Origin: Catajapyx aquilonaris
Taxonomy: Eukaryota
Reading direction: 5' to 3'
Assembly: GCA_000934665.2 (NCBI GenBank)
Contig: KZ538081.1
Coordinates: 1-64,000, forward strand
DNA: 64,000 nucleotides
Shown: positions 5,996-59,659 of the stretch, one piece after another
Position numbering within the stretch: the first letter of the stretch is position 1
How the letters are laid out: the number at the start of each line of letters is the position of its first letter
The notes under the pieces: generated by a model
What the model saw: the letters and a program-made list of their open reading frames with translations, nothing else
The model's database searches: none
What the model was told of the DNA's origin: nothing
Translations under genes and position numbers: made by a program

Positions 5996-6362
5996 CTTAT
6001 CGTGACTTCAAACTTCATCGCTAGAGTTATCGTGATTTCAACCTTCATTGACAGAGTTATCCTGATTCTTCATCGCCAGAGTTATCCTGATTCGTAATCG
6101 CTAGAGTTATCCTGATTTCAACCATCATCGCTAGCGTTATCCTGATTTCAACCATCATCGCTAGCGTTATCCTGATTTCAACCTTCATCGCTAGAATTAT
6201 CGTGCTTTCAACCTTCATTGCCTGAGTTATCCTGATTCTTCATCGCTATTTATCGTGATTTCAACCATCATCGCTAGAGTTATCCTGATTTCAACCATCA
6301 TCGCCAGAGTTATCCTGATTTCAACCATCATCGCCAGAGTTATCCTGATTTCAACCTTCATT
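5996..6362. repeat. 30-bp minisatellite (~12 copies, ttatcctgatttcaaccatcatcgctagag)
   Basis: Tandem array ending ~15 nt before the Rim acceptor at 6376. Confidence 0.92.
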
Positions 6363-6376
6363 GGCTTCATTTCCAG

Positions 6377-7055
6377 GGTCGGGAGCTGAGACGGCAGTTC
6401 TCGCAGCAGGAGAGCGAGAGAGGTTGGAGCGAGGGCATCGGTCGCATCCAGCCTGCGACCCCGAGGCGACTCTCGGTGGGTTCGGGAGACGAGAGGGGCA
6501 GTCGGGAACGAGGAGGAGACCGGGAACGAGGAGGTGGAGGAGACCGGGAATACCGGACTCTCCCGAGGGAACCGACCGCCAGGAGAGGACGAGACCCTTC
6601 GAGCGAGCGGGAGTGGTGGGAGCGAGAGCGGGTGCCCAGTCTGCGTGGGGGCATCCCGGGGCCGGGGCCGCCCGTGGGTCCGCCCTCGGCCACTCTTCTG
6701 CCCCCGGGCGGCAGGGGCGGAAACAACAGCACCAGCAGCAATCATCGCGGGGGCAGAGGCGGGGCGGGAGCAGGAGGCCGGAGACGACCCGATCCGGCCA
6801 GTGTCAGTGTCAGTGCCAGTGGTAGTGTGAGTGGAAGTGTGAGTGGTTCGGTTCCCGGTGTGGCCCGCAACGACTCGCTGAGTTCGGACCAATCGGAGAG
6901 CGTTAGACCTCCGCCTCCGAAACCGCACAAGGCCAAGAGGGCCAAGAAGCTGAGGCAAAGGTCTCTCAGCAGCTCCGAAGACGAAGTGCGCTCCACTCCG
7001 GAGTGCACAAGTTGCGAGGAGCAGGAGGCTGAGAGTGAGAGTGTCTCCGAGAAAG
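6377..7055 (+). CDS. Rim: Rim exon: GRELRRQFSQ...RNDSLSSDQSESVRPPPPKPHK...RQRSLSSSEDEVRSTPECTSCEE...SESVSEK
   Basis: ttccag|GGT and GAAAG|gtaagc, phase 0-1. Contains hallmark RIM linker motifs (DSLSSDQSESVRP, SLSSSEDE, STPECTSC, ESESVSEK). Confidence 0.93.
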
Positions 7056-7279
7056 GTAAGCAAAGCACCTGTTGGAAGAACCCTTGCTTTGTGTTGGCCT
7101 CCTCTACCACCCTTTCTCATGTTTTTTTTTGTATAACCCTCGTTTGTTTTTTGGGGAGGGAGTGTGAATAAACAGGAAGGCGTACCGGTTGGAACTAACA
7201 CACTTCTTGCATCTTCCAGCTGGCGATGATAATGCTTCTTCTCTGTGACTTTCAGATGTGGAGACATGAAGCTAGGGCA

Positions 7280-7765
7280 AGACTTGGAAATACCATTCGT
7301 TTTCCCCACTTATTTTGTCTATTGATTGTAATTCCAACGCTAGTATTAGACAGACTCGACCGTTGGAAGTACTGTACAATAGTAATTCCAACGCTAGGAA
7401 GGCAGATTCGACCGTTGTAAATGCGATCATAATTCAAACTCTACAGTCCGTTAAACCAAAGAACGATATGACGTCACCGCCTCGCCTCCACCCGGCTCAT
7501 CCCTCCTATCTCATGTTCCCGAATAGCTCTGCAAGAATACTACTGCGCATGCTCAGAAAACACGGCTGGTGTGACGTCATATCGTTCTGTAGGTAGGCAG
7601 ACTCGTACGTTGGAAATACGACTGTAATTCCAACGCTAGGTAGACATGCTGGAGGGTTGGAAATAGGATTGTAATTCCAACGCTAGGTAGACAAGCTGGA
7701 GGGTTGGAAATACGATTGTAATTCCAACGCAAGGTAGACATACTGGACGGTTGGAAATACGATTT
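7280..7765. repeat. ~45-50-bp tandem repeat (gattgtaattccaacgctaggtagac...gttggaaatac) interrupted at ~7420-7590
   Basis: Repeated gtaattccaacgc and gttggaaatac units. Confidence 0.75.
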
Positions 7766-8906: not shown

Positions 8907-9158
8907 NNNNNNNNNNNNNNNNNNNNNNNNNNNNNNNNNNNNNNNNNNNNNNNNNNNNNNNNNNNNNNNNNNNNNNNNNNNNNNNNNNNNNNNNNNNNNN
9001 NNNNNNNNNNNNNNNNNNNNNNNNNNNNNNNNNNNNNNNNNNNNNNNNNNNNNNNNNNNNNNNNNNNNNNNNNNNNNNNNNNNNNNNNNNNNNNNNNNNN
9101 NNNNNNNNNNNNNNNNNNNNNNNNNNNNNNNNNNNNNNNNNNNNNNNNNNNNNNNNNN
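8907..9158. other. Assembly gap (N run) flanked by poly-C/poly-A and poly-G
   Basis: 252 Ns. Confidence 1.
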
Positions 9159-10734
9159 GGGGGGGGGGGGGCAAGATACGGGTCGTTTGGGTTGCTTGTC
9201 CCAATTGTTCTCTTTTTTTAAATATAATTATTGGTGACATCCGATTATGTAATCAAACAAATTGGGAGGTGGGTTCCTCTTCCTGTTACATTACTTGCGA
9301 GGATTATCATTATTATGGTATATATTACACATAGACCTACATTCACAAGGTAGTAAATTATATGCAAATTTCGTGCAAAAGACTTAAACCAATGTTTTTA
9401 TCAATCAATTATTGGCTTCTCGACAGCCCTCCATTAGTTATTGTAACCAATGGCGAAACGAGAGACTTTTTTATAGTTATGAATGACCGATGAGCGAAAA
9501 GTTTGTTTGAATCTATGTCAGGCCCTCAGAAGAAAAAAAAAATCAGGATATTAAAACCATGTCATCACGAAATGCCTTTTCCGTCCATGACGTAACTCAA
9601 TCTCTTTTAGTATTTGACTATATATATAATCATGGAAGAGTTGTGTAATATTTATGCAATACTCTCTATAATATAGTTGACAAACTTTGATAGTTTCTAG
9701 TTTAGTTATCGATCAATTTAAATTAAGGTGTAAACGATCAGTAAAAAGGCCAAATAAATACATTGCGTACAGAAATACCGACGGTGACTCAAATTAAACA
9801 ATGAAGGTGGTTCAAGTGGTACTTTTAAAGAGTGTATTGCAAAATAAATTGGCAAACTGCATTTTGAATATTCGCCGCTCTTTTCTGCAAATGTGATAAG
9901 TTCAAGTACACCATGTCATATTCTATCAGATGAAGTCATGTGAGTTCGTTCAACTTTTTTTTTTTTTTTGCATTACGTAACATAATTTGTTATGTAAAGT
10001 AAAATGCTCCAGAACTTTTCAAAGCACGCCATTATTACCAGAGCAGAACTGATAATATGAGTATCCGGATATACTNAAGAAGATGATTGCATGAGAACGA
10101 AGTTATACAAGAGCTCACTGAATAGTTTCTGAGAAGCTGGAAAATTGAATATAGTCTATACTAATGGATTATAAGCCGGTTGCACTTTTTAATCACTGTT
10201 TTCAATACTTTCTTCAATTTCGTTTTAAAGCACATTTACATGATTGTTAGAGTGTGAATTGTTTCGCAGCCACAGGTTACAGTAGCTAATGAGCCGAGTC
10301 TGAGAGCTATATCTGACCGAACCTTGGGGGATTTTCGCTTTCGATTTGTGGCCAAAGAGGAATCTGATGTTTTCGCAAAGTTTCGCTAATTCCCGGGATC
10401 CGAACTAAAAATAAGACCAGCACCACAAAACCAGGCTCTCACCAAACTTTGACAGCGGCTATGAAATAACAAGAAGTCCACATTTGGAATCTCCTGAACA
10501 CTCCAATTAATGACTAACTGCTAGGAAATTCAGCGACCATGTGCAATTGTCGCACTTGATAATTGCTGACACAACGATGACTCACTTTTAGACTATTACT
10601 GAGTGAAGAAGTTATTTAATCAATCAGTGTTTGTGTTGATCTCTTATACGTACATCTTATCACCATTTTTTGCAAATTTATTAAAATGCACTGAACTTTT
10701 CAATTCGAAATTTTTGTCATATAATTTTATTAGT

Positions 10735-16500: not shown

Positions 16501-17571
16501 ACTGTACAATATTCTCTTCAGCTTGCGGTAAAATATTAGAGCCAAATATTTTAAAATTAATATAAAATATTGGCTTATGTCCTGGACATACAGCAGAAAC
16601 ACTAATTATTGTAAATAAAAGAAAGGTTTCTATAGATAATCCAAAGAAAAGATTTGATCTTGCAGTAATGCTATAGTGAAGACTGAAAATGGTGGTTTTC
16701 TGGCTCATTATGAATCGTTAGGACTAATTGGACTTGATCAGGCGATTGATTAGAAAACTATACCTACTTATAGTGGGTGTAGATAACTTCAAACTATATA
16801 ATAGATTTTTCCTGCATGCCAACGATCTACACCTGAAAACTAGAGCGAATCCAGTATTTCCGGGCAATAGCGCAGTGCTATAATTAGCAACATGAAATAT
16901 AACCTTTAAATATTTTGTTACCAATTATTAGCGGCTGGTGTAGTAGATCCCATAACGCGTTGCATTTCAATCGCTAACAAAATATTATGTTGATGGCAAT
17001 GCCTCGCGTGATAAATATTGTTGTGAAAAGGAAGCTCTTCCGGACTCTCTATAAATACTCGGGCTCGGGGAATAGACTCAATCAACACAAACCACTCTCA
17101 GCTTTCCTATCAATATCACGTCGTGTAATTAAATCGCACCGAGGATATTGGAAGAACAAGTTCTAAGATTATTGAATCAAGACCCTGCTGCGTATATATC
17201 GTTTCCAATATAGCTAAAGGAAGGGGTAAGTTCTGAGCGACAACAACGGGAGAGAAATTATTGGGGGTCGGGATCATATATATAAATGCGTAGATAAATA
17301 CACCCGGGGTCGGAATATGGTAAACAATCACGAGAGACGTTGCATATACACCTCAACCACAAACGTCACGAAAATTTCGTCATTAAATCGGCGTGGAACC
17401 AACATTATTATCGCTTGCCAAAATATAAGATATAGATTAGTGGTTTTTTTTCCACCGACGTTTTAGTTCCATTATGCGAATGAGTAATGACCAAATAATG
17501 CCAGCCTATAGAGAAATCGTCCCACATGAATTTTCAACCTGTTAATTATTATTGTAATTATTGTGTTCATA

Positions 17572-18025
17572 AGTACAAAAGCGGGTTAACATGCTCAACC
17601 GGTTTATCTAGATGTACAAACTGATTAACCTGCTCAACAGGTTTATCTTGATGTACAAACTGGTTAACGTGCTCAACCGGTTTGTCTAGATGTACAAACT
17701 GGTTAACCTGCTCAACCGGTTTGTCTAGATGTACAAACTGGTTAACCTGCTCAACCGGTTTGTCTAGATGTACAAACTGATTAACCTGCTCAACTGGTTT
17801 GTCTAGATGTACAAACTGGTTAACCTGCTCAACCGGTTTGTCTAGATGTACAAACTGGTTAACCTGCTCAACTGGTTTGTCTAGATGTACAAACTGGTTA
17901 ACCTGCTCAACCGGTTTGTCGAGATGTACAAACTGGTTAACCTGCTCAACTGGTTTGTCTAGATGTACAAACTGGTTAACCTGATCAACCAGTTTATCTA
18001 TAGATACACAAATTGGTTAACCTGT
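17572..18025. repeat. 39-bp minisatellite (~11 copies, gatgtacaaactggttaacctgctcaaccggtttgtcta)
   Basis: Direct tandem array. Confidence 0.95.
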
Positions 18026-26078: not shown

Positions 26079-26331
26079 AGAGCTACGAGGCTCGTAAGCT
26101 GGGGGAGAACATGAGGCCTAGTGTGACTGTGACCTCTCCGACCTCCCCTGACCCAACCCGTCTCCGAGCAGCCTCACCTCGGATGGCGGGAAGGATCCAG
26201 GTCAAACTCTGGTTCGACTCCTCCGCCCTTCAACTGGTGGTCACCGTGGTCAGGGCCGCTGACCTGCCTTGCCGACCCGGAGGTCACCTCAGAAACCCAT
26301 ATGCCAAGCTTTTCTTGCTACCAGACAGAAG
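26079..26331 (+). CDS. Rim: Rim exon: RPSVTVTSP linker and start of C2A (GRIQVKLWFD...RNPYAKLFLLPDR)
   Basis: ttttgtag|AG and AGAAG|gtttgt, phase 1-2. Confidence 0.94.
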
Positions 26332-26446
26332 GTTTGTATATCTTGCGCTGTTTAAAAAATATATTATATCGGATGCAGTTACGCCTCTTTTTGTGTGCAT
26401 ATATAAACCTTATTTTATTCCAACCTCTGTTATTTTTCCGTTGCAG

Positions 26447-26612
26447 TGAGAAGTCCAAAAGGAGGACTAAAACTATGGGGGCGACCTGTGATCCACATTG
26501 GAATCAAACCTTTCTTTACGCTCCTTTTCGGAGGGCGGAACTCAAAGCGAGACACCTGGAGATGACCGTATGGGACTATGACAGATATGGGTCCAATGAA
26601 TTTTTAGGAGAG
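26447..26612 (+). CDS. Rim: Rim C2A exon (SEKSKRRTKT...LEMTVWDYDRYGSNEFLGE)
   Basis: ttgcag|T and GAG|gtcagt, phase 2-0. Confidence 0.96.
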
Positions 26613-26684
26613 GTCAGTTTATAGCCCAATAATTATATTTCAGAATAATATTCTTGACAACCTTGCAAAATAATAGCTGGTCAC

Positions 26685-31681: not shown

Positions 31682-31914
31682 TTAGAACCTTTCCTCGCAA
31701 TGGACTGGGCTGAGTTTGTAGAATGTGGACACGTCCACACCGTTGTCGGACAGCATTTTGATGAGCCTGTCCATGAGGGCGTCGTCTAGTGTGACCCCCG
31801 CGCGACCCATGATGACCCCGTGATGGGCCACTGTACCGTCATCCAGCTCAGTGCAGGCGTAATTCAGGCTGTACGTCGTGTAGTCTGTCTCAAGCACGTG
31901 ATTGTCATACTCGA
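31682..31914 (-). CDS. Nested lipocalin exon 3 (IEYDNHVLETDYTTYSLNYAC...IMGR...HCEERF-stop); ApoD/bilin-binding-like, 180 aa in total
   Basis: ttacag|TC acceptor, phase 1. TDY (SCR2), IMGR (SCR3) and the four-Cys pattern of ApoD-type lipocalins. Confidence 0.9.
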
Positions 31915-31978
31915 CTGTAATTAAAAACAAAAGTTACATCTATAGGTCTAATGACTTGAGTCAGAGTAGGTCACGTAC

Positions 31979-41986: not shown

Positions 41987-42682
41987 GTAAGTATACACAA
42001 AAACCAAGGTAGCTATACTGTACATATATTTACAAAAAAAAAATATGGTAATATATTATTATTGCATGTGCAGTTTTACACCCGGTTTGTACCAAGGTCG
42101 GTCAAGTAATTTATATTCAAGATTTTCACATGGATAATGTTTAGTAAGTTCGCACAAATTATTTTTCTCCGTGTGTCAGAGGAACGTCCTTAAAGTATTC
42201 ACTTTATCAAAACACTGCCAATAGGGCTTCTCTACAATCTCTATCAGTATAAAAGGCAGTTTGTTCGTTTGTTTGCTTGTTTGTTCAGGTGTGGTTATCA
42301 TGGCAACCACAGTTCGCGCAGCTTGTACGGTTGGCATTACCAATGATATCTGCCAAGCTCTCTGTATGGGGTGTACTGTGCTGCACTTATTTCCAACGCT
42401 ACGCTTGGGGGAGGGAGGAAAAATGGATGACGTATGCGATGTTGCCAAGTCTCTGGAACAAACCTCAAAGACTACGATTGTGAATTATTTAATTAATAAA
42501 TCGATAATAATCAATTAAGAATTAAGTTGTTGTCATAATAATGGAGCTGAGCGAATGTGGGTGCGCACTCCATTGCGCTCGTTAAAAAAATTTCATCTAT
42601 AGTCTATAATAAAAGGATAATTTTAATATTTAATTAAGTATGAATTTTTCAGTCGTTAATTTGGGTGCATGTCCTTTTTCAG

Positions 42683-49200: not shown

Positions 49201-50832
49201 AAAAAAAAACGTGGGTTAAGAATCGTAAACATGGACAGGTGTGTTTCTGTATATTTATGAAGAAGAAGAAGAAAAAAGTGAGTGAACGTGAGTGTGTGAG
49301 AGAGATAGGCGATCGAGTAGTCACTCCTGGACAGAAACGGTTATGAGGATTTTTTTGCAAAAAAAAAATGGATTAAAAAATGGCACACCTATCGGAACCT
49401 TTTTGCTGAACTGGAAATAAAAAAATTTACATCGTTAATAATTGTTGGTAGTTTAAAAAAATTAAATCCTGTCGTGAGTGCAATGCATTTCTATATAGTT
49501 GCTTCGGCCCTGATCTTTAACAAAAAATAATAATAATATTGGCACGCTGCATAATAATAATTATTATAACGGCGCGTATGTACGATCCTTTTTTGTAAAA
49601 AAAAAATGAAATGTTAACTCTTGGCAAAAAAAAATTAGTGCGGCAACATCCCCTCCCCCTTGCCTCCCCCCCCCCCTCCAATTTTTCTGCTGTGACAAAA
49701 AAAAATCATATTGTTCATGTTAACATATGCAGTGAGAAAAATCAGCAGATTTGTAGTCATCCATGTTTACGATTATTTTGTAAACGAGTCAATATAATAT
49801 AGGCAATTTTACCTAAGGTGCTAGTTCTTAATCCTGTATATATATGTTTGATACGTATACTTTCCATATTTGAAGTATATATCGGTACGCTGATTCAGCG
49901 AGGTACAGTAAGGCTTTTACTTTTAACGATGAGTACTGTGCATTTTTACAGGGAATAACCTTTAAAGTAAAAAAAAAAAGGAGAGAAAAAGAAAACATAC
50001 CTAAATATTGTTAGTGTTGGAAGAATTTTTTTTATATAGAATATAAATGAAAAGCGGTGTACATGTTTTAACCCTCCCCCACAAAAAAAAATATCAGAAG
50101 ACGGATGAAGAGCAAGAGGAAACAATGAAGCGAATGAAGAGGAAGAATCAACAACAATGTGTGTGTGTGTGTCCCCTCCCCTCACAACAATTTTAGGTTT
50201 TCAAAATATTTCAGCATGCAATTGACAAGACGCCTATTGTATCCGTAACAGTTCTTTTTTTGATATAAGACCGAGAAAAAAAAAAGACACGAATTTAATT
50301 AAGAAAGTTAGTCATTTTTAAAAACCGTTCTGTATATATGGTAGCATTTAAATGCTCAAAACTGTATGTGTCATCAAAATGATGTGCATTAATTGTCTCT
50401 GTGACAAAAAACTTATACATATTGACAACATATGAATTGCAGGGTATGTAATGAAAAAAAAAATTATGAAGTTACATCAAAAAGAAAAAAAAGAAAGAAA
50501 AACGTTTGGCTTTGGTGATGCATGATTCACACTTTAAACCTCCCATTTATTTATTTATTTTTTTGGCCCACTTTACACTACACACTTGTGAAATTTTTTT
50601 ATCATGCGATTTTTTTTTTGCAGGCAACCTTCAGAAGCAGCTTTTGCCAAAATTTCAGTTTGAGAAGATTAGTGACATCTAGTGATTGGGTAAGTTCTTA
50701 TAGGTATATTTCACTGTCCTATATTGGTATTTATTATGATTTCCAGACAGCTTCAAATTTATTGGCCAAATTGATCGCATTTTTTTGTTGTTGGATTGCA
50801 TGTTGAGCACATAGCTTTGGATCAAACAATCT

Positions 50833-50919
50833 TCATATGCTAATGTCGCTCGTATCCGTCGATGACCCCACGAGCGACTGGGGCAAGGACACTACAGGTG
50901 ATATCATCCCCTGGAATTC
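50833..50919 (-). CDS. fax: fax/FAXC-like last exon (EFQGMISP...DISI-stop)
   Basis: catctccag|GAA acceptor, stop at 50833-50835. The preceding 69-nt intron is in frame and stop-free. Confidence 0.7.
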   Translation of the reverse strand, partial: EFQGMISPVVSLPQSLVGSSTDTSDISI

Positions 50920-50988
50920 CTGGAGATGAAACCAAAGGGATGAGACGCACTTTGTACTGGTATAGTTCTGTAACACCCTGTACATTAC

Positions 50989-51107
50989 CTGCAGCTCTTC
51001 ATGACTGCTGACACCCCCGTCGGAAAACTTATCCAGGCAAGAATCCCAGTCGGACCAGTAGTTGTACTTCATCCGGAGGCAAAAGTTGCTTAGGTTGATC
51101 AACTCCT
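50989..51107 (-). CDS. fax: fax/FAXC-like exon (EELINLSNFCLRMKYNYWSDWD...EELQ)
   Basis: aacacag|AG and CAG|gtaatg, phase 1-0. NLxxFCxRMKxxYWxDW is the FAX C-terminal motif. Confidence 0.9.
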
Positions 51108-51354
51108 CTGTGTTAAATTGGTCGCAAAAAAAGTGTATATAAACAAACTGTGGAAAATACAGGCCTACGACACTTCCATCGCCTTATACGATGTCTCAGC
51201 ATATCATATAAAATATTTAAACCATTTTTCACCATTACTTTTAGCAGATTGTTAGTCAGATTGTTCAGTCGCAATTTGCCCTTGCTATAGGTAGGTTGCT
51301 AGGACGGGTAAATGAGAGCGTTTGAACAAAATAATGTATAACATGTTCTCTCAC

Positions 51355-51471
51355 CTTGTATGACCTTCTCGTGAATTGAACCTGGCATGTTCCACATTAC
51401 TTGGGCCAGCACTCCAAACACTGCGCAGTCCACCTCGGTCGGATTGGAACCGGAAAAGTAATCCTTGCTTC
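51355..51471 (-). CDS. fax: fax/FAXC-like exon (GSKDYFSGSNPTEVDCAVFGVLAQVMWNMPGS...)
   Basis: aaaaag|GA and CAAG|gtgaga, phase 1-1. GST C-terminal-like YFxGxxPTxxDCAVFGxLAQ. Confidence 0.92.
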
Positions 51472-51738
51472 CTTTTTTAAAAAATAAAATAAATAAATAA
51501 ATAAATACATACATATTTATATATAAAAAATTGCATAAAACAATAATTAGGACCAGTAGGATCATGTTACATATGTGTAAGTATGTTCATTTTGCGACAA
51601 CCACTAATATAAAGTCGCAGAAAGAAAATCTACCATTAAAAAGACAACGTTTGTTTGTCCAGATTTGGTTTCCGTGGCAACCTGTTGCCATTGCTTATCA
51701 CTTTTGCCAAATTTTTGGCGAAGGGTTCACTATATAAG

Positions 51739-51899
51739 CAGGGACCATCAAAGATGGCGGACCCTATTTTTGCCTGTACCCTATTTATACCTCGCTGGCG
51801 TTCCCCACACTTCAAGATGGCCGCCAGCCTTGGCAACGCCCTAAACAGAGAGACGCGGAAATCGAATGTTTGCGCCTCTTATGTAGTATATGCTCCCTG
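51739..51899. mobile_element. MITE family M3, internally deleted copy, 7-bp TSD ATATAAG
   Basis: atataag|caggga...gctccctg|atataag. Confidence 0.85.
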
Positions 51900-52202
51900 A
51901 TATAAGTTAGGTGATTATTTTTTTACAAGCGAAACTGACTGTGAGTGCGCATGGCAACGTCGCAAACGGCAGCCACTTTGTTCCCTCCCCCAAGAGTAGC
52001 GTTGGAAATAAGCGCAGATATATACATCCACTATACCGAGAGCTTACCTACCAGCAGCTATCATTGATAATTCCAACCCTGCAAGCTGCGCGAACTGTAG
52101 TGAGCACTCTGTTGCGCACTCGTAAAAAAATCATATACAGCAAATAATAATAAATAAATAATAAAAAAAACCAAGTAAGTCGTGACAAATGATCTTAATT
52201 AC

Positions 52203-52408
52203 CAAGAGCCAGAGAGAGGCACCAGAGGTCTTGCAAGGCGATCTGCTCCACGTCCTCCTGAGACCTTCCCCCGAGGCCCTGGATCCTGGATGACCTCTTG
52301 ACCGCCATTTTCCAGCGCCAGAACGCCAGGCGCAAGCGCCACGTGGGATTCATGATCAGTGGCGCGGTGTTCAGGTCCGTGTGAATAAACCTCCACAGAA
52401 GGATGCCC
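52203..52408 (-). CDS. fax: fax/FAXC-like exon (GILLWRFIHTD...QGLGGRSQEDVEQIALQDLWCLSLAL)
   Basis: gtttcag|G and CTTG|gtaatt, phase 2-1. Confidence 0.9.
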
Positions 52409-52617
52409 CTGAAACCATCACGATTATTAAGTTGCCATAGATCCGAATCAGGATAAGAGTAGCTCTGAAAGCCAGCGCTACTCTTATCCTGATTCGAGCA
52501 TATCTCCTCACCGCGGCTGATCCATCGACATTTCGCACCCCTACATTTTCGACTTGTTTTGAGCCTACGATTACGCTGGAGTCGAGTAATTCCGCTAATT
52601 GAGAAACGTGCGCTTAC

Positions 52618-52814
52618 CAGAGCAGGTGATGCTCAGCCATGAGCTGCACCAGACGACCGATGGCGACCTCCTCGTCGGACAGGTGAGCCGAAAGGCGCTT
52701 GTGAAAACGCTTGTCCAGGAACTCGATGGCTTCCTGGCTATCCGATATCTCCTGGTCGCCCACCGATACCCAAGAATACCTGCTTCCAGGGGCGAAAGGT
52801 TCCTCGAAGACGTT
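52618..52814 (-). CDS. fax: fax/FAXC-like exon (NVFEEPFAPGSRYSWVSVGDQEISDSQEAIEFL...MAEHHLLW)
   Basis: ttttgcag|AAC and CTG|gtaagc, phase 0-2. DSQxxIEFL and ExAIxRxxxxMxEHHLxW are FAX/metaxin motifs. Confidence 0.92.
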
Positions 52815-53207
52815 CTGCAAAATCAGAAAAATAACAAATCGGCATTTGGCAATCACTGCTGCATATAGATGATTTTTTTTTTTTTTACGAACGCAACCGA
52901 GTGCGCACCAGAGTTCGCGCGGCATGCTCGGTTGGCTTTATCAATGATAATTGGTGTAACCCAGGTAGCACTAGAATCCAGGGAATATCCCAGGGACGTC
53001 CACATGGATCCATTGTGGATAATTGGGATGCCCTGTGGATATCCCACATGCATCCATAAATCATGTAGACAATGGATCCAGATCACAGAAAGATACTGGC
53101 TTATAAGCTGCGAGGCACTTATTTCCAACGCTACACTTGGAGGGGAACAAAATGGCCGACGTTTGCGACGTTGCCGAAGCTCTGGAGCAAACCTCAGATG
53201 CTACGGG

Positions 53208-53554
53208 CAGGGAGCATATACTACATAAGAGGCGCAAACTTCGGTCAGCGCCATTGATTTCCGCGTCTCTCTGTTTGTGGCCGTTGCCAAGGCTGTCGGC
53301 CATTTTGAAGTGGGGGCAACGCCAACGAGGTATAAATAGGGTACAGGCAAAAATAGTGATGGTTTTGGCGGCCATGGCAACTACATGGCAAGAACACGGG
53401 CGAATCAAAGATGGCTGACATTTTTTGCCTGTACCCTATTTATACCTCGTTGGCGTTCCCCACACTTCAAGATGGCCGCCAGCCTTAGCAACGCCCCAAA
53501 CAGAGAGACGCGGAAATCGAATGTTTCCGCCTCTTATGTAGTATATGCTCCCTG
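53208..53554. mobile_element. MITE family M3, full palindromic copy nested in an M2 MITE, TSD CTACGGG/CTACGGA
   Basis: TIR cagggagcatatactacataagaggcg ... cgcctcttatgtagtatatgctccctg. Confidence 0.88.
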
Positions 53555-53662
53555 CTACGGATTTTGGGCGGTCCATGGAGAGTAACTCTGGCAGTTGCGT
53601 GACTGTGGGTGCGCACTCGCAAAAAAAAAATCATCTGTACCGGTATAGTATTTTTTACGCAC

Positions 53663-53792
53663 CTCATATGGAATTTTGGTGATTCGGAGGTAGGTTTCTA
53701 CCTTCAGAGAAAAGCAGTTGATAGAAGGAGCCAGTTTGCCCCTGGGCAGCTGGTGAAGGGTCACGGTGTTGCGTTTCTTCTGACACGCGCAT
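53663..53792 (-). CDS. fax: fax/FAXC-like first constant exon (CACQKKRNTVTLHQLPRGKLAPSINCFSLKVETYLRITKIPYE)
   Basis: tatcag|A and GAG|gtgcgt, phase 2-0. LHQxPR...PSxxxFxLKxETYLR is the FAX N-terminal motif. Confidence 0.93.
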
Positions 53793-54137
53793 CTGATAAT
53801 ATTAATATGCAATATACATTAATACATCATTAATTCAATAAAGAGTTAGTTTCAATTGAAATAATCCGTTTTTGGGGAGCTTCATGTTGTTTTTAAGCAG
53901 TTGGTTTGTAACAGTTATCCCTTAGCGGAATTATTAGCTAGGTTTATATGGTGATTTAAATTGGAATTAATCATTCTTATACTAACAAGGTTGCAAGGTT
54001 GTAATCAAAAGGTTGATTCGACCAAATCATACGCCTAATATTATGCAGATAATTTTTTTTTAAAGGAGCGCAACCTAGTGCGCATCACAGTTCGCGCAGC
54101 TTGCAGGGTTGGAACTACCAATGTATATAAGCACCAC

Positions 54138-54476
54138 CTCTGTGAGGATGATGAGCAGAAGTAGGCGGCTGCTCCTAGCATGGCCAGTCCTACCCCAACT
54201 CCAGTGAAGATGATGAAGGACCAGTTCTGTCCTTCCATGAACTCTTCCGAGGGCAGGGCGCTGGGCAGGGGCGGAAGGGAGGGAACCTCAGTCAAGCCTG
54301 GGATGCCCGGTATACCGGGCATAATTTTCAACTTTGACCCTTCTGGCCCATCTGGATTTATGGGCACGCAGGGCAGATGAGATGATGACACTCCTGGGGT
54401 CTGCGTTGGTGACCCTACTGGGCTCATGGTGTGATGACCTGTCGTCCGACTGCAAGGGCAGTAGCATGCTCCCTCG
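54138..54476 (-). CDS. fax: fax variable module 3, TM exon (EGACYCPC...NWSFIIFTGVGVGLAMLGAAAYFCSSSSQ)
   Basis: ggacag|C and CAGAG|gtggtg, phase 2-2, open throughout. Confidence 0.8.
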
Positions 54477-54790
54477 CTGTCCAGTTCAAAAGGAATTCTC
54501 AGTAAGACATTTAATTTATTGTCACATTACTCACAGTCATTGTTAATTGTAAGTATATTCAGCAGGGGGGATGCGTTCTACAAGTAGTTTGAATTATTTT
54601 AATTTGTAAATTAATTATATTTGCATTGTTTGCCCCCGACAGCCGGTTACCTTTAGTAATTAATGGATACAAAAAAAAATGACCGAATGATAAATCTTTC
54701 GTGGAATGTAATGTCATTGTAATTATAATTAAAAACAATTGGAAATTATCGCTAAGAACCGTATGATATTTATATAAAAACCATACTTAC

Positions 54791-54837
54791 CAATTGCCCA
54801 AGCAATTGCCTGTTAGCACGGAGTACATGAAATCCAT
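54791..54837 (-). CDS. fax: fax variable module 3, ATG exon (MDFMYSVLTGNCLGN)
   Basis: ATG at 54837, consensus donor TG|gtaagt in phase 2, joins 54476 in frame. Confidence 0.65.
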
Positions 54838-55706
54838 CTTTTTTTAAAAATCTCAGATTCAACACTCTTGCTCTGATGATTACTGACAGTCCTACTTAAA
54901 TAATTAACGGTGTTTATTTACCCAAGCCTGAATAGATGTTTTAAAGGTTTTTTTAAAAAAGAGAAGTAACAGCACTGAAAATTTTGAACCGTAACAATAT
55001 AATCCTATTGATATTACCATAGAAGCAACAACAAACATGTTTGCCTCGGAAGAAATTGGTAATGATAATTATTATTTTTTTGCGAATGTTGACGAATGTT
55101 GAAATTTAACCAATATAATTATATTATTAAAGGTGAGAATCGCGCAGAATGTGAGAAACAACTGGCGTCCTTTGTTCAAACTGTAATTTTAATCAATCTA
55201 ATTTCCTCGTTAAAGTATAAGTGATGGTCTTGTTTACTGTTGATGGCATGGTTGGCATCATTTAGGCTTCGTTTTTTCTGCAACAATAAAAAACACTAAT
55301 AATTTATCCAATATTTATTATTCACTTAGTCACCCCCCAAAAAAATACATAAAATTAATCGAACAATGAATGAAATATTATTTTACTTGAAACAGTTGAA
55401 AGTAACGGCTACTGCTCACTATAACAAAACATGACTTCCCCTTCATTTTAAATATGTGGACAAGTAATTGGTGTTACCGATATGAAATTATTTTTAATGT
55501 TAAGCAGACCCGAATTTTGAACAATAAATATTATATTTCGCGTGAAATGTGTGGCCCGCTGCTTTTTTTTCGGACCCACAAAATGAGATGGGAAGATATA
55601 GCACAACTGCTACAAAAAATATTATCTGCTCGTCATAAGTCATCAAGTTATTAATATTTTAGATAGTTTGGACTGTCAATGTCTTAAGCCATCCTGTTAA
55701 ACTTAC

Positions 55707-55868
55707 TTGAAGTAATAAGTGGCAGCCGCGACTCCTAATCCCAAAGCCAGGCCTCCGACAACAAGGGTCTGCCATTGGGGTTGGCTGACCTCTGACACCG
55801 TGTACAGGGTGATCTGTGGGCTTCTCTTAGCACAGGTCTTGCAGCATGGCACCAGGATGTACTGGGTC
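55707..55868 (-). CDS. fax: fax variable module 2, TM exon (TQYILVPCCKTC...PQWQTLVVGGLALGLGVAAATYYF)
   Basis: ctcggtag|G and TCAA|gtaagt, phase 2-2. This frame is absent from the ORF track. Confidence 0.8.
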
Positions 55869-55947
55869 CTACCGAGCAAAAATAAATAAATACTGAATTA
55901 ATAGGAAAACAAGTCGACAATAATTAATAAGGCTGCAATAAACTCAC

Positions 55948-55991
55948 CCAAATTCGGGCAAGACTGAGGACAATCCTTTGGAAGGCTCCAT
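55948..55991 (-). CDS. fax: fax variable module 2, ATG exon (MEPSKGLSSVLPEF)
   Basis: ATG at 55991, donor TTGG|gtgagt in phase 2, acceptor ccgcag| with exon start at 56006. Confidence 0.7.
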
Positions 55992-56533
55992 ACTTTTCTT
56001 GTATTGCTGCGGGTAATTAGCCCATTAAGTTACTGCATAATATGTACCTCATTATCGTGATTCATGCCATGATGCGAATCAAGTACATTACCTGGTAAAT
56101 AAATTTTTAACGACCTTCTGCTGCGAAAGATTCACTTGACAATTTTGGGTATTCCAATTATTCACTGTTTACAGCTGCAGTATCTAGGAAACGAGACTGC
56201 ATTGTTGCTTTTTTTCAAGTAGCCAATTGTCAATAAAACAATACTGTATTGCCAACCTAATAGTGTATATACCGAGCTGGGGGTTCGGTTTTCTCTCATT
56301 TCATTTGAATCCTGTTAAAAATAAGTTCTTAATGATAATTAATTTAAGACATCATAAATTCCACGTGTCAGCTCGTTTATTTTGGCTCATTTGCACGTAT
56401 AATGAGCTGTCTTTATTGTCACTCCAGAATTTCACATATTGCGGCCATCAGGGTGTCCTTTTCCTTGTAGATCAATTCTCATCCTCATTGTCCCTGGAAA
56501 CACAAGGCAACAATGTGAGTGGACTTACACGTT

Positions 56534-56607
<74 letters not shown>

Positions 56608-56609
56608 AT

Positions 56610-56972
56610 CAGGGAGCATATACTACATAAGAGGCGCAAACTTCTGTCGGAGCCTTTGATGTTCGCGTCTCTCTGTTTGGGGCCGTTGCCGAGGCTGGCG
56701 GCCATCTTGAAGTGTGGGGAACGCCAACGAGGTATAAATAGGGTACAGGCAAAAATAGGGTCCGCCATCTTTGATTCGCGCGTTTTTTGCCGTGTAGTTG
56801 CCATGGCCACCAAAACCATCAAAGATGGCGGACCCTATTTTTGCCTGTACCCTATTTATACCTCGTTGGCGTTCCCCACACTTCAAGATGGCCGCCAGCC
56901 TTGGCAATGCCCCAAACAGAGATATGCGGAAATCGAATGTTTGCGCCTCTTATGTATAGTATATGCTCCCTG
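56610..56972. mobile_element. MITE family M3, full copy, 7-bp TSD ATCATAT, adjacent to (CAT)n at 56534-56606
   Basis: atcatat|cagggagc...gctccctg|atcatat. Confidence 0.9.
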
Positions 56973-56995
56973 ATCATATGGTAGTGTAACCTTAC

Positions 56996-57232
56996 TTTTT
57001 GGGAGGGTTTAGGTAGAAATAAGCGGCTGTGGCCAGTGCTCCTAGTCCAAGGAGCACTCCAATAATAAGAGGCCAGTTGGTGGCTGGTGGCTCAGGTGGC
57101 TTGATCCCAGTAGGACTTGGTATGCAGGGTACGGATACCGGAGGCATCGCACAGGGAGGTGTCATGATTCCTTCAAACAGATAGGACGTGTCCGCAGCCG
57201 CCGTGGCCATGTCTTTGTTGCTTCCAAAGTCA
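56996..57232 (-). CDS. fax: fax variable module 1, TM exon (DFGSNKDMATAAAD...VPCIP...NWPLIIGVLLGLGALATAAYFYLNPPK)
   Basis: ctctgcag|T and AAAA|gtaagg, phase 2-2. Confidence 0.82.
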
Positions 57233-57322
57233 CTGCAGAGGAAACAAACAATTGGCCCCCCAAAAAAACAGAGAGAAAAAATGTTGGACTATCAAAACAC
57301 AATTATTGTGTATACAACTTAC

Positions 57323-57378
57323 ACTCCATGGATGTACTTGAAGTTGGGCAGGTACTTCCCCGATGACAGACCAGACAT
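57323..57378 (-). CDS. fax: fax variable module 1, ATG exon (MSGLSSGKYLPNFKYIHG)
   Basis: ATG at 57378, donor GAGT|gtaagt in phase 2, acceptor cattcag| with exon start at 57411. Confidence 0.7.
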
Positions 57379-59659
57379 TGTGAGCGCAATTACAGGTGGT
57401 TTACCGACCACCTGAATGGAATTTGCGTGTAAAATCGCACTAAAAATTTATGCCACTGTTGCAAATGAAAATTGGCAAAGTCATAGCAACCTCTCTGTAT
57501 TCAAGCATTCTTGCTCTGATTGTTACTGTTATTTGCAGCCATTGTCGGACAGTAGTGATCTACTGTTATCCAAGGTCATACACCGCTTCTGCTGGCACCA
57601 TTGGGCCATTATCTGACGTTCTCATATCGACCAATGGCGAGCATTACTAGTCTGGACCTCGAAGGACACGACGGATGCGCTGGTACCGAGTGTATGTACA
57701 CATCTGCAAGTACCGGTATGTACAGTACAGTATGATTAATAGTCATTATAATATGAACGATGAGCCTCATTTAAGTAAGCCTTATTAAGACCACTGTGCC
57801 CTATAGTGGGCCAAGTTAAATGGGGCTAATTATATTTCGGGGATAATCATGTCCCTAATGTGCTTTACTTATATTGTTGAATTGGTTCAGAGTATGCTGC
57901 TTGGGACCATCGTGGACACCTGTGCAGCACAACGGTCAAGTTGGTCAAAATGTGCCCTGCAGAAGGAGGCCGTCATGTGCTGATGTTGAACTACCTTGGG
58001 ACATAACTGCAATTAATTGACGGTGAGTACATATGACTGGTGGCCATGAGCAGTGGACAATAAAATAATGAGCATTAATACTCAAAGTTGGCTTCTCCAA
58101 ACTTAGAATGATTTAATGGTTCAACAGGGCAAGAGGCGGAATGCAAGCAGTAAACTGGCAGAGTGAATGATAATTAATTTTTTTAAATCAAAACTTAAGT
58201 ATGGTATCCAAAAATTGATTACCTTTGCGCAAAATAATTTTCAGTCGAGATTACGAGCTTTTTTTTATGAGTGTTCCTTTCGATCTGATGTCTTTGTTGG
58301 AAAAATCAGGTCAATTTTGTTGTGTGGCGCGATCATTTTTATTATACGAGTAATATACTGATGGAAATATGGTGTTTAAATAATGTCGTCTTGAGTAGTG
58401 AAAAGCTGGGCTTGAAAGTTGCGAATATGCAATTACATCATGTTTAATTGGAGGACAGAAGGTGTTACATATGAATCTTTTGAAGTTTAATTTTTATGAC
58501 AATGGTAGATGATGGCTAATATTTTCATCGAAAACCTCTGATATAATACATTGAAAAATGAGGGAATTACAATAGGGCAATCATGCTTAGGCTCATGTTC
58601 AATTTTATTAAAGACATTGTTAGTGCACAACAAAGAGTCAGAAAAAAATGGTCATTAACTGTAACTGGCATTGAAATTAAAATTCTTGCACTTTTCCTGG
58701 GATCATCTGTGGCTATCAATGGATTTTAAATATAATTACAAATTCTAAACCTTTCGAGCACATGTTTTTCCTAGGCCTACTCGAGAGACAGATATTTCAA
58801 CACATGAATTTCAATTTTTTTCCGTATATTATCAGGAACAACTTCCAATAAAAACTAATTGCACCACACAACAAAACTAATGGAAGACATCCTTTGTATG
58901 TTTAAAGCATTATTGCTTTGAAAGGTCACTTAGGAAGAGATTTAAGTTTGACAGTCGAGAGCTTTCAAATGGCATCAGTGCACTAAGTACCTTCCATAAT
59001 ATTTCAATTTCAATTTAGAGTAAATGACAATGGTGTGTTCCTGCTGGTGGCCAATGTCACGTTGTTTAGTGGCAATAATTTTAATATATTATTATGTGCA
59101 TATGCAGGATTTACCAAATGTTGTAATCAAATCATTTTTAAGTATCGCCACATGTCCAATCAGCATGAATTTGATTAAATATGAGCTTTAGTTAACAATG
59201 TGCTGCTCAAATATTTGGTTATTGTTTTATCATTATCATAAATGGTTGAAGCAAAAAAAAAATTAAGCAGGTTTCTAGAGAATTCTGTTGTCATTTCAAA
59301 TACAAATAAATGGCAAGTTCTCAACTTTCAATATCAGATTTCTACCACTCACAACTACTCAAAAACTGAGTTTCATTTTTTCACATATATATTTTTCCAA
59401 ATAGCTGTTGCATTCTTTATTGCACTAAGCTGTTTATTTATTAGCCAGTTACTCTTCCTGGTTATCATCGAAAGTACTAGCTGCTAATACTAAGCCGAAT
59501 TGAATCACATTTCAATTTTCAAGGCACTAGGCATTTGAATTTCTGATTGCAAAATGACTGAATGCAGAAATTGGCATAAAGCTTGAATGATGGAATTCAC
59601 ATTATTTGCAGCCTTTTTAAAGGATGGGTACAGGCAACCTATAGACATAGTAGCAGCCA

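Follow-up and report, generated by a model that had tools for sequence, protein, structure and literature searches.

In a 64-kb stretch of the Catajapyx aquilonaris genome (GCA_000934665.2, contig KZ538081.1, positions 1-64,000; hereafter the window), the minus strand carries a gene for a FAXC/metaxin-like protein with a glutathione S-transferase (GST) fold. Ahead of its first constant exon lie three two-exon units, each made of an exon that starts with ATG and ends in phase 2 and a phase 2-2 exon that ends in a hydrophobic helix. Two conclusions drawn from the sequence are well supported, namely that the three units are paralogues arisen by tandem duplication and that each of them has been retained as coding sequence. 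We further propose, with a probability of roughly 40%, that they act as three alternative 5' modules, each of which would be spliced directly onto the first constant exon. The window has the character of eukaryotic, animal-like DNA, with a GC content of about 0.30-0.51 per 2-kb segment, short GT-AG introns and 254 N. In the following, M1e1, M2e1 and M3e1 denote the ATG exons of modules 1, 2 and 3, M1e2, M2e2 and M3e2 their helix exons, and C1-C5 the constant exons.

All module exons lie on the minus strand. Module 1 consists of a 56-nucleotide (nt) ATG exon (57323-57378, MSGLSSGKYLPNFKYIHG; donor GTAAGT), which has a GLSS..LPxF motif in common with module 2, and a 237-nt helix exon (56996-57232; GC 0.54; donor GTAAGG) whose helix reads LIIGVLLGLGALATAAYFY. 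In module 2, the ATG exon is 44 nt long (55948-55991, MEPSKGLSSVLPEF; donor GTGAGT) and the helix exon 162 nt (55707-55868; GC 0.56; helix LVVGGLALGLGVAAATYYF; donor GTAAGT). Module 3 has an ATG exon of 47 nt (54791-54837, MDFMYSVLTGNCLGN; donor GTAAGT) and a Cys- and Pro-rich helix exon of 339 nt (54138-54476; GC 0.58; helix SFIIFTGVGVGLAMLGAAA; donor GTGGTG). Every acceptor is AG and every donor GT, the ATG exons all end in phase 2 and the helix exons are all phase 2-2; the introns within modules 1 and 2 measure 79-90 nt. The 19-residue Kyte-Doolittle means of the helices are 1.98, 1.73 and 1.93 for modules 1, 2 and 3, respectively. An initial annotation of this DNA had given the six exon coordinates, the phases and several peptides; the coordinates stand as given, translation reproduced the peptides, and the phase pattern with its GT/AG borders is present in all three units. 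C1 is entered in phase 2 at 53792, which fits all three helix exons, and joining each module to C1-C5 yielded an open frame to the stop (405, 376 and 436 codons for modules 1, 2 and 3). A Pfam scan found no match at E ≤ 1 in modules 1 and 3 and only a chance-level holin match in module 2, and an Rfam scan of 50000-59000 returned no match.

To establish how the units are related, the window was searched with a helix pattern and with the exons themselves. The pattern W-x(1-3)-two hydrophobics-...-A[AT]Y[YF] had three matches only in six frames of the 64 kb, and these are the three modules. When the exons were compared with the window by tblastn, with composition correction off so that the E values are generous, every helix exon had both other modules among its best non-self matches: M1e2 and M3e2 matched at E 0.002-0.005 (40% over 52 residues), M1e2 and M2e2 at E 0.08-0.2, and M2e2 and M3e2 at E 0.08-0.4. 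Other weak matches were interleaved with these, at 36623-36552 with M1e2 (E 0.03) and, with M3e2, on the opposite strand inside M3e2 itself (54180-54323, E 0.002) and at 6746-6480 (E 0.003). In a three-way alignment of the helix exons 10 columns are invariant, among them the W, G, GL and YF of the helix, ahead of which all three modules have a (V/L)PC motif. GLSS.{0,4}LP.F is confined in the window to M1e1 and M2e1; their local alignment scored 25, and of 12316 open windows of 14 residues, 35 (self hits among them) scored at least as high. By tblastn, the constant exons have no further copy in the window.

Similarity between the units extends upstream of the ATG exons. A 37-nt leader or promoter-proximal block of module 1 (57492-57528, minus strand, beginning CAGTAA) is 84% identical to its counterpart in module 3 (54851-54885, minus strand), the end of which lies 14 nt ahead of the ATG. 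In the window, the 15-nt core is exact at these two sites only; each of the four remaining matches deviates from it at 3 positions. As the leader and the GLSS motif are common to units, the duplicated unit would have comprised leader, ATG exon and helix exon, and the presence of ATG exons and leader within it argues for a start region belonging to each unit. Outside the leader and the exon motifs the DNA of the three units retains no detectable similarity, which indicates that the duplications are old. The tandem duplication that the initial annotation had proposed is thus borne out by the restriction of the helix motif to three places, the tblastn matches among the helix exons, the aligned columns and the shared motifs, which are distributed as it had described (the W-x-hydrophobic motif and (V/L)PC in all modules, GLSS..LPxF in modules 1 and 2). 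Its candidate start site for module 3 near 55390-55455 found no support; the conserved leader lies instead at 54885-54851. In module 1, a possible intron of the 5' untranslated region (57413-57491, GAG/GTTGCT ... CATTCAG/G) separates the conserved leader from the ATG exon; its removal would delete a 15-codon upstream open reading frame (ORF) beginning at about 57475, and the frame of the module 1 ATG is open upstream as far as the acceptor of this candidate intron.

The six module exons are intact in frame, ATG and splice dinucleotides. Their GC content is 0.45-0.58, with 0.50-0.72 at third codon positions (GC3), and so resembles that of the constant exons (GC 0.50-0.60); the introns and spacers around the modules have 0.29-0.43. 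Donor strength was assessed by ranking the 388 GT sites of 58000-50700 with a consensus matrix; the module donors ranked 6, 8, 9, 14, 22 and 31, within the span of those of the constant exons (1, 3, 4 and 59). Frames, splice borders, exon-like composition and motifs have therefore been kept, as is expected of coding exons and as the initial annotation had assumed. We consider it highly improbable that module 1, module 2 or both are unused, decaying relics of partial duplication that leave module 3 as the single 5' end. The missing leader block of module 2 and the low similarity between modules would suit such relics; the flanks, however, have diverged, yet the modules retain frames, ATG, GT/AG, phase, GC, GC3, helix and N-terminal motifs. 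In random sequence of 64 codons, we estimate the probability of a frame open by chance at (61/64)^79 = 0.02 for M1e2 and (61/64)^54 = 0.08 for M2e2. An ORF after module 2 (55176-55295, ..QKKRSLND..) was considered as a decayed C1 and rejected, C1 having no tblastn match there at E ≤ 10.

The constant exons, likewise on the minus strand, encode a recognisable GST-fold body. C1 (53663-53792) reads CACQKKRNTVTLHQLPRGK...IPYE and contains a basic juxtamembrane stretch and the start of the GST_N_4 domain, which continues in C2 (52618-52814). C3 (52203-52408) was read from the sequence, and its frame is open in the joined models; C4 (51355-51471) carries GST_C_6, and the last exon, C5 (50833-51107), ends with the stop TGA at 50835-50833, with AATAAA about 75 nt past the stop. 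The ORF holding C2 matched GST_N_4 (PF17172) with 34 bits (cut-off 30) and that holding C4 matched GST_C_6 (PF17171) with 38.8 bits (cut-off 28); C1 alone gave a weak GST_N_4 match of 19-22 bits over the first 20 profile positions. A phmmer search of 1.84 billion representative proteins with C2 returned 39 proteins at E ≤ 0.001, with a best identity of 47-48%. All six longer relatives that were scanned contained GST_N_4 and GST_C_6, and Tom37 was above the cut-off in two of them and below it in three. The introns after ..IPYE and ..HxxW coincide with read-through points in the genome-derived relatives P0003 and P0030. A further relative, P0019, matched only a bacterial GST (StyI) and SspA in the PDB. 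Protein homologue searches with C3, and with C2 among longer proteins, found no relatives, and a search of the ESM Atlas with M3e2 gave no usable match. Two metagenome loci matching C2, out of 339 pattern matches, were dismissed as chance: only residues 2-20 around YSWVSVGD aligned, one of the loci lay on a 71%-GC contig, and tblastn of all exons added nothing.

The relatives in the protein library begin with an N-terminal hydrophobic helix, continue with a basic stretch and then read ..VVLHQFPRG. A VVLH-type motif was present in 13 of the 39 relatives, nine of which have at least 24 residues ahead of the motif, and in 9/9 of these a hydrophobic 17-mer (Kyte-Doolittle mean 1.64-2.48) ends 13-37 residues before VVLH. 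In the modules joined to C1, a count by eye places the end of the helix about 11-17 residues ahead of VTLH, within or just below the range of the relatives, and a basic stretch, KCACQKKRN, follows the helix ahead of the GST domain. The body is therefore FAXC/metaxin-like, with relatives bearing an N-terminal helix, as the initial annotation had supposed. It is probably FAXC, a name that rests on the domains, the architecture and the motif ..LHQFPRG..SPF.LKLETYLR..IPY.., which we take to be that of FAXC. Metaxin 1 has its helix at the C-terminus, whereas in the gene described here the helix is N-terminal, before the GST_N domain. FAXC has been assigned a metaxin-like GST architecture (10.1101/2023.01.04.522723; PMC10452860, in the portions of these papers available). 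Human FAXC is described, in the accessible part of one report, as mainly mitochondrial with a transmembrane domain in its N-terminal region, and a figure legend of the same report labels the N-terminal region FAXC_N (PMC11145136).

How the modules are used can be proposed from phase and architecture. Ahead of one FAXC/metaxin-like GST-fold gene, whose constant exons run from 53792 down to 50833 on the minus strand, a 5' unit of leader, short ATG exon and helix exon would have undergone two ancient tandem duplications. A transcript would begin ahead of one of the ATG exons, each of these presumably with a separate start site; the ATG exon concerned would be joined to its own helix exon, and the phase-2 donor of the helix exon would be joined to C1, with any downstream helix exons skipped. 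The predicted products of 405, 376 or 436 residues would have one cytosolic GST-like body in common, whereas the single anchor helix and the N-terminal tail, which is about 46-100 residues long and contains Cys and Pro, would vary. The KCACQKKRN stretch after the helix suggests an N-out/C-in topology by the positive-inside rule, and the products of the modules may differ in targeting. Since C1 itself lacks both a start codon and a helix, it must be joined by at least one of the modules. Direct joining to C1 would give every module the architecture typical of the family and is the simplest account of why all three were kept, and it would place the shared PC motif and the polarity marks of the helix on the same side in every product. 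A more specific version of this proposal is that of promoter-coupled cassettes, in which a transcript, depending on its start site, would take up only the helix exon of the same unit and skip the others, so that one body would be delivered by three anchors to different membranes or partners; we regard this version as unlikely on present evidence, and in such an arrangement the destinations may be, for example, the mitochondrial outer membrane as opposed to the endoplasmic reticulum or plasma membrane.

The same phases would also permit, as the initial annotation had suggested, the helix exons of one gene to be included cumulatively, producing a three-pass protein of 572 amino acids from the module 1 start, a two-pass protein of 489 from module 2 and a one-pass protein of 436 from module 3. 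All three helix exons are symmetric (2-2) and have both acceptor and donor, and chained joins are stop-free to the normal stop (572 codons from module 1, 489 from module 2). Cumulative inclusion is, moreover, the default outcome of exon definition, and the basic segments after helix 1 (KK..K..KR) and helix 3 (KCACQKKRN) would leave the GST body on the same side of the membrane in every form. We nevertheless consider this quite unlikely. A chained form would invert helix 2, yet all helices share one polarity, each opening with N/Q-W and closing with Y-Y/F and K/R, and the (V/L)PC motifs would no longer all face the same side of the membrane. Only the shorter forms would require M2e1 and M3e1, both of which have been kept. 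Nine relatives have one best hydrophobic segment before the GST domain, although the script gave the best segment only, so that the 9/9 count is compatible with multi-pass relatives. Another junction, of M1e2 to an AG located 15 nt before the module 2 ATG, was rejected, as the frame shifts and a stop arises inside M2e2.

Several observations weigh against the direct joining of all three modules to C1. M2e2 and M3e2 have acceptors of their own, so a module 1 transcript would have to skip up to two in-frame exons. Of the six donors, the GTGGTG of M3e2 is weakest (31st among 388 sites), and module 3 lies closest to C1. In a search of the window, no copy of the leader block was found upstream of module 2, and the searches made brought up no relative near enough to test the conservation of the modules. 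The membrane anchor itself is in dispute: prediction programs gave no transmembrane helix in vertebrate and invertebrate FAXCs, as far as the available text of the preprint goes (10.1101/2023.01.04.522723, Adolph). The helix seen here in the modules and in the N-termini of the relatives conflicts with that preprint and agrees with PMC11145136. Lastly, a pyrimidine-rich acceptor lies downstream of both M1e2 and M2e2; within 5-7 codons of it the frame meets a stop, and a poly(A) hexamer stands some 75-85 nt beyond, an arrangement that suits separate small genes just as well.

These short terminal sequences raise the question of whether modules 1 and 2 are small three-exon genes, derived by partial duplication of a FAXC-like 5' end, with module 3 as the sole true 5' end. 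The products would be single-pass, anchor-only proteins of 104 and 73 residues with the tails ..KKDNEDEN and ..KKNEA. The candidate terminal exon after module 1 (56472-56493, minus strand) follows a pyrimidine-rich acceptor, ttgccttgtgtttccag/G at 56493, and reads K-DNEDEN-stop in phase 2, seven codons to the stop, with AATAAA at 56417-56412. That after module 2 (55262-55277, minus strand) follows the acceptor gtgttttttattgttgcag/A at 55277 and reads K-KNEA-stop in phase 2, five codons to the stop, with ATTAAA at 55193-55188. If a recent miniature inverted-repeat transposable element (MITE) and a microsatellite (see below) are subtracted, the intron between M1e2 and its mini-exon would be about 80 nt, near the length of the introns within modules 1 and 2. 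GC is 0.42-0.43 over 56550-56400 as against 0.25-0.35 in the roughly 100 nt downstream (56400-56280), and exon skipping would be unnecessary. The acceptor at 56493 ranked 4 of 385 in a crude scoring that is unreliable for this genome and fails on real sites, the acceptors of C1, C3 and C4 ranking 116, 96 and 125 of 385. Against these points, an early stop is expected by chance past any acceptor, and the density of 9 AATAAA/ATTAAA hexamers in the 3.8 kb of this strand means that any chosen acceptor has one within some 100 nt with a probability of roughly 1 in 5. The mini-exon acceptors were chosen after the fact, and the two mini-exons are dissimilar to each other. An anchor-only protein would also need a function of its own to have been retained for so long, and no M1e2-like protein of 42-137 residues was found in the protein collection, which seems to be without this lineage. 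We judge separate small genes to be somewhat unlikely. Mixtures may occur, such as transcripts that terminate in the main but in part read through to C1; in the promoter-coupled version described above, anchor-only products of the short terminal exons may act as regulators.

Direct joining of each module to C1 would place the locus beside known systems of variable 5' ends. In protocadherin alpha/gamma and UGT1A clusters the variable units are single first exons, and exon skipping is not needed. The likeness to these clusters that the initial annotation had claimed holds for the tandem paralogous 5' units with their own ATG before constant exons and, in part, for a conserved upstream block, which was found at two of the three units only (1 and 3). 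It does not extend to the structure of the unit: there are three units here of two exons each, the second of which has an acceptor, and their joining to C1 is predicted from phase. Because of this acceptor, choice of the cap-proximal donor alone cannot explain exclusivity. The neighbouring, homologous exons of identical phase (2-2) also resemble tandemly duplicated, mutually exclusive exons, of which Letunic, Copley and Bork reportedly gave an account in 2002 and for which Dscam and tropomyosin are said to be examples. Unlike such exons, the helix exons differ greatly in length (237, 162 and 339 nt) and are each preceded by an ATG exon of their own. Transcripts that include two helix exons stay in frame and would thus escape nonsense-mediated decay. 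All the long inverted repeats found at the locus are transposon copies, no systematic search for selector/docking RNA pairing having been made. Alternative first exons and tandem exon duplication are both common, and alternative N-termini are ordinary.

FAXC proteins are conserved across animals and are needed for axon development in flies. The gene described here shares with the FAXC/Drosophila failed axon connections family the GST_N_4 plus GST_C_6 body, an N-terminal helix and the basic stretch that follows; it differs in having three tandem anchor modules, and its best identity to a library protein is 47-48% over C2. A narrow search of the literature on FAXC and failed axon connections, covering parts of the texts concerned, yielded no account of one body with several tandem anchor modules. 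The parts of two sources that are available mention many whole FAXC genes in invertebrates, sometimes clustered, and, as isoforms, human forms differing in N-terminal length and a Drosophila isoform C (10.64898/2026.01.05.697642, 10.1101/2023.01.04.522723). The family is biochemically almost uncharacterised, and its membrane anchoring is disputed (PMC11145136 versus the Adolph preprint). The retention of three diverged anchors for one body would imply that selection acts on the anchor and its short exposed tail and that both matter for function, and the locus would then be a natural experiment on what the anchor specifies, be it targeting, topology or Cys modification. If correct, direct joining would constitute a rare case of two-exon alternative 5' cassettes dependent on coupled skipping of exons; should modules 1 and 2 instead be separate genes, they would be microprotein genes born from partial gene duplication.

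Repeats occupy several introns and spacers of the gene. A palindromic MITE-like insertion (56607-56960, no strand assigned) sits 35 nt past the M1e2 donor and is 92-97% like 53207-53557 and 51744-51918, from which we conclude that it inserted recently and stands outside the design of the modules. The element is about 350 nt long, with arms that are 96% complementary and 42 nt apart, and its three copies or part-copies in the gene are 85-97% alike; pairing of these copies across introns may affect splicing. Adjoining it between modules 1 and 2 is a microsatellite, (ATC)26 on the plus strand (56534-56611) and (ATG/GAT)n on the gene strand. A second repeat of about 70-80 nt with a poly-A/T end, resembling a short interspersed nuclear element or a MITE, is present in three introns of the gene (54055-54123, 52878-52956 and 52052-52130); the first copy begins 15 nt past the M3e2 donor, and the third lies in the opposite orientation to the first two, to which it is 76-84% complementary. 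In C5, a possible in-frame intron of 69 nt (50988-50920, GTAATG...TCCAG) leaves the frame open whether it is retained or removed, and the C-terminal tail of the FAXC-like protein may therefore exist in two lengths.

Beyond the gene, no ORF of at least 75 amino acids is present at 57.5-59.2 kb, and none of the 13 such ORFs upstream of module 1 at 59-64 kb had a Pfam match at E ≤ 0.001. On the other side, exon-sized ORFs with Pfam matches mark neighbouring genes at 17570-18016 (minus), 26133-26621 (plus), 31685-31933 (minus) and 42179-42484 (minus). The matches above the cut-off were to Nup54_57_C (E 6e-9) and the Pfam C2 domain (E 1e-11), and those below it to lipocalin/FABP (E 5e-4) and Glucosamine_iso/6-phosphogluconolactonase (E 1.5e-4). 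An assembly gap at 8907-9158 accounts for 252 N, and single N occur at 10076 and 41762. A region at 6230-7309 has GC 0.51 and open frames of 360 and 297 amino acids on two strands, without a Pfam match; the weak, Pro-rich tblastn match of M3e2 within it (E 0.003) probably reflects low-complexity repeat sequence.

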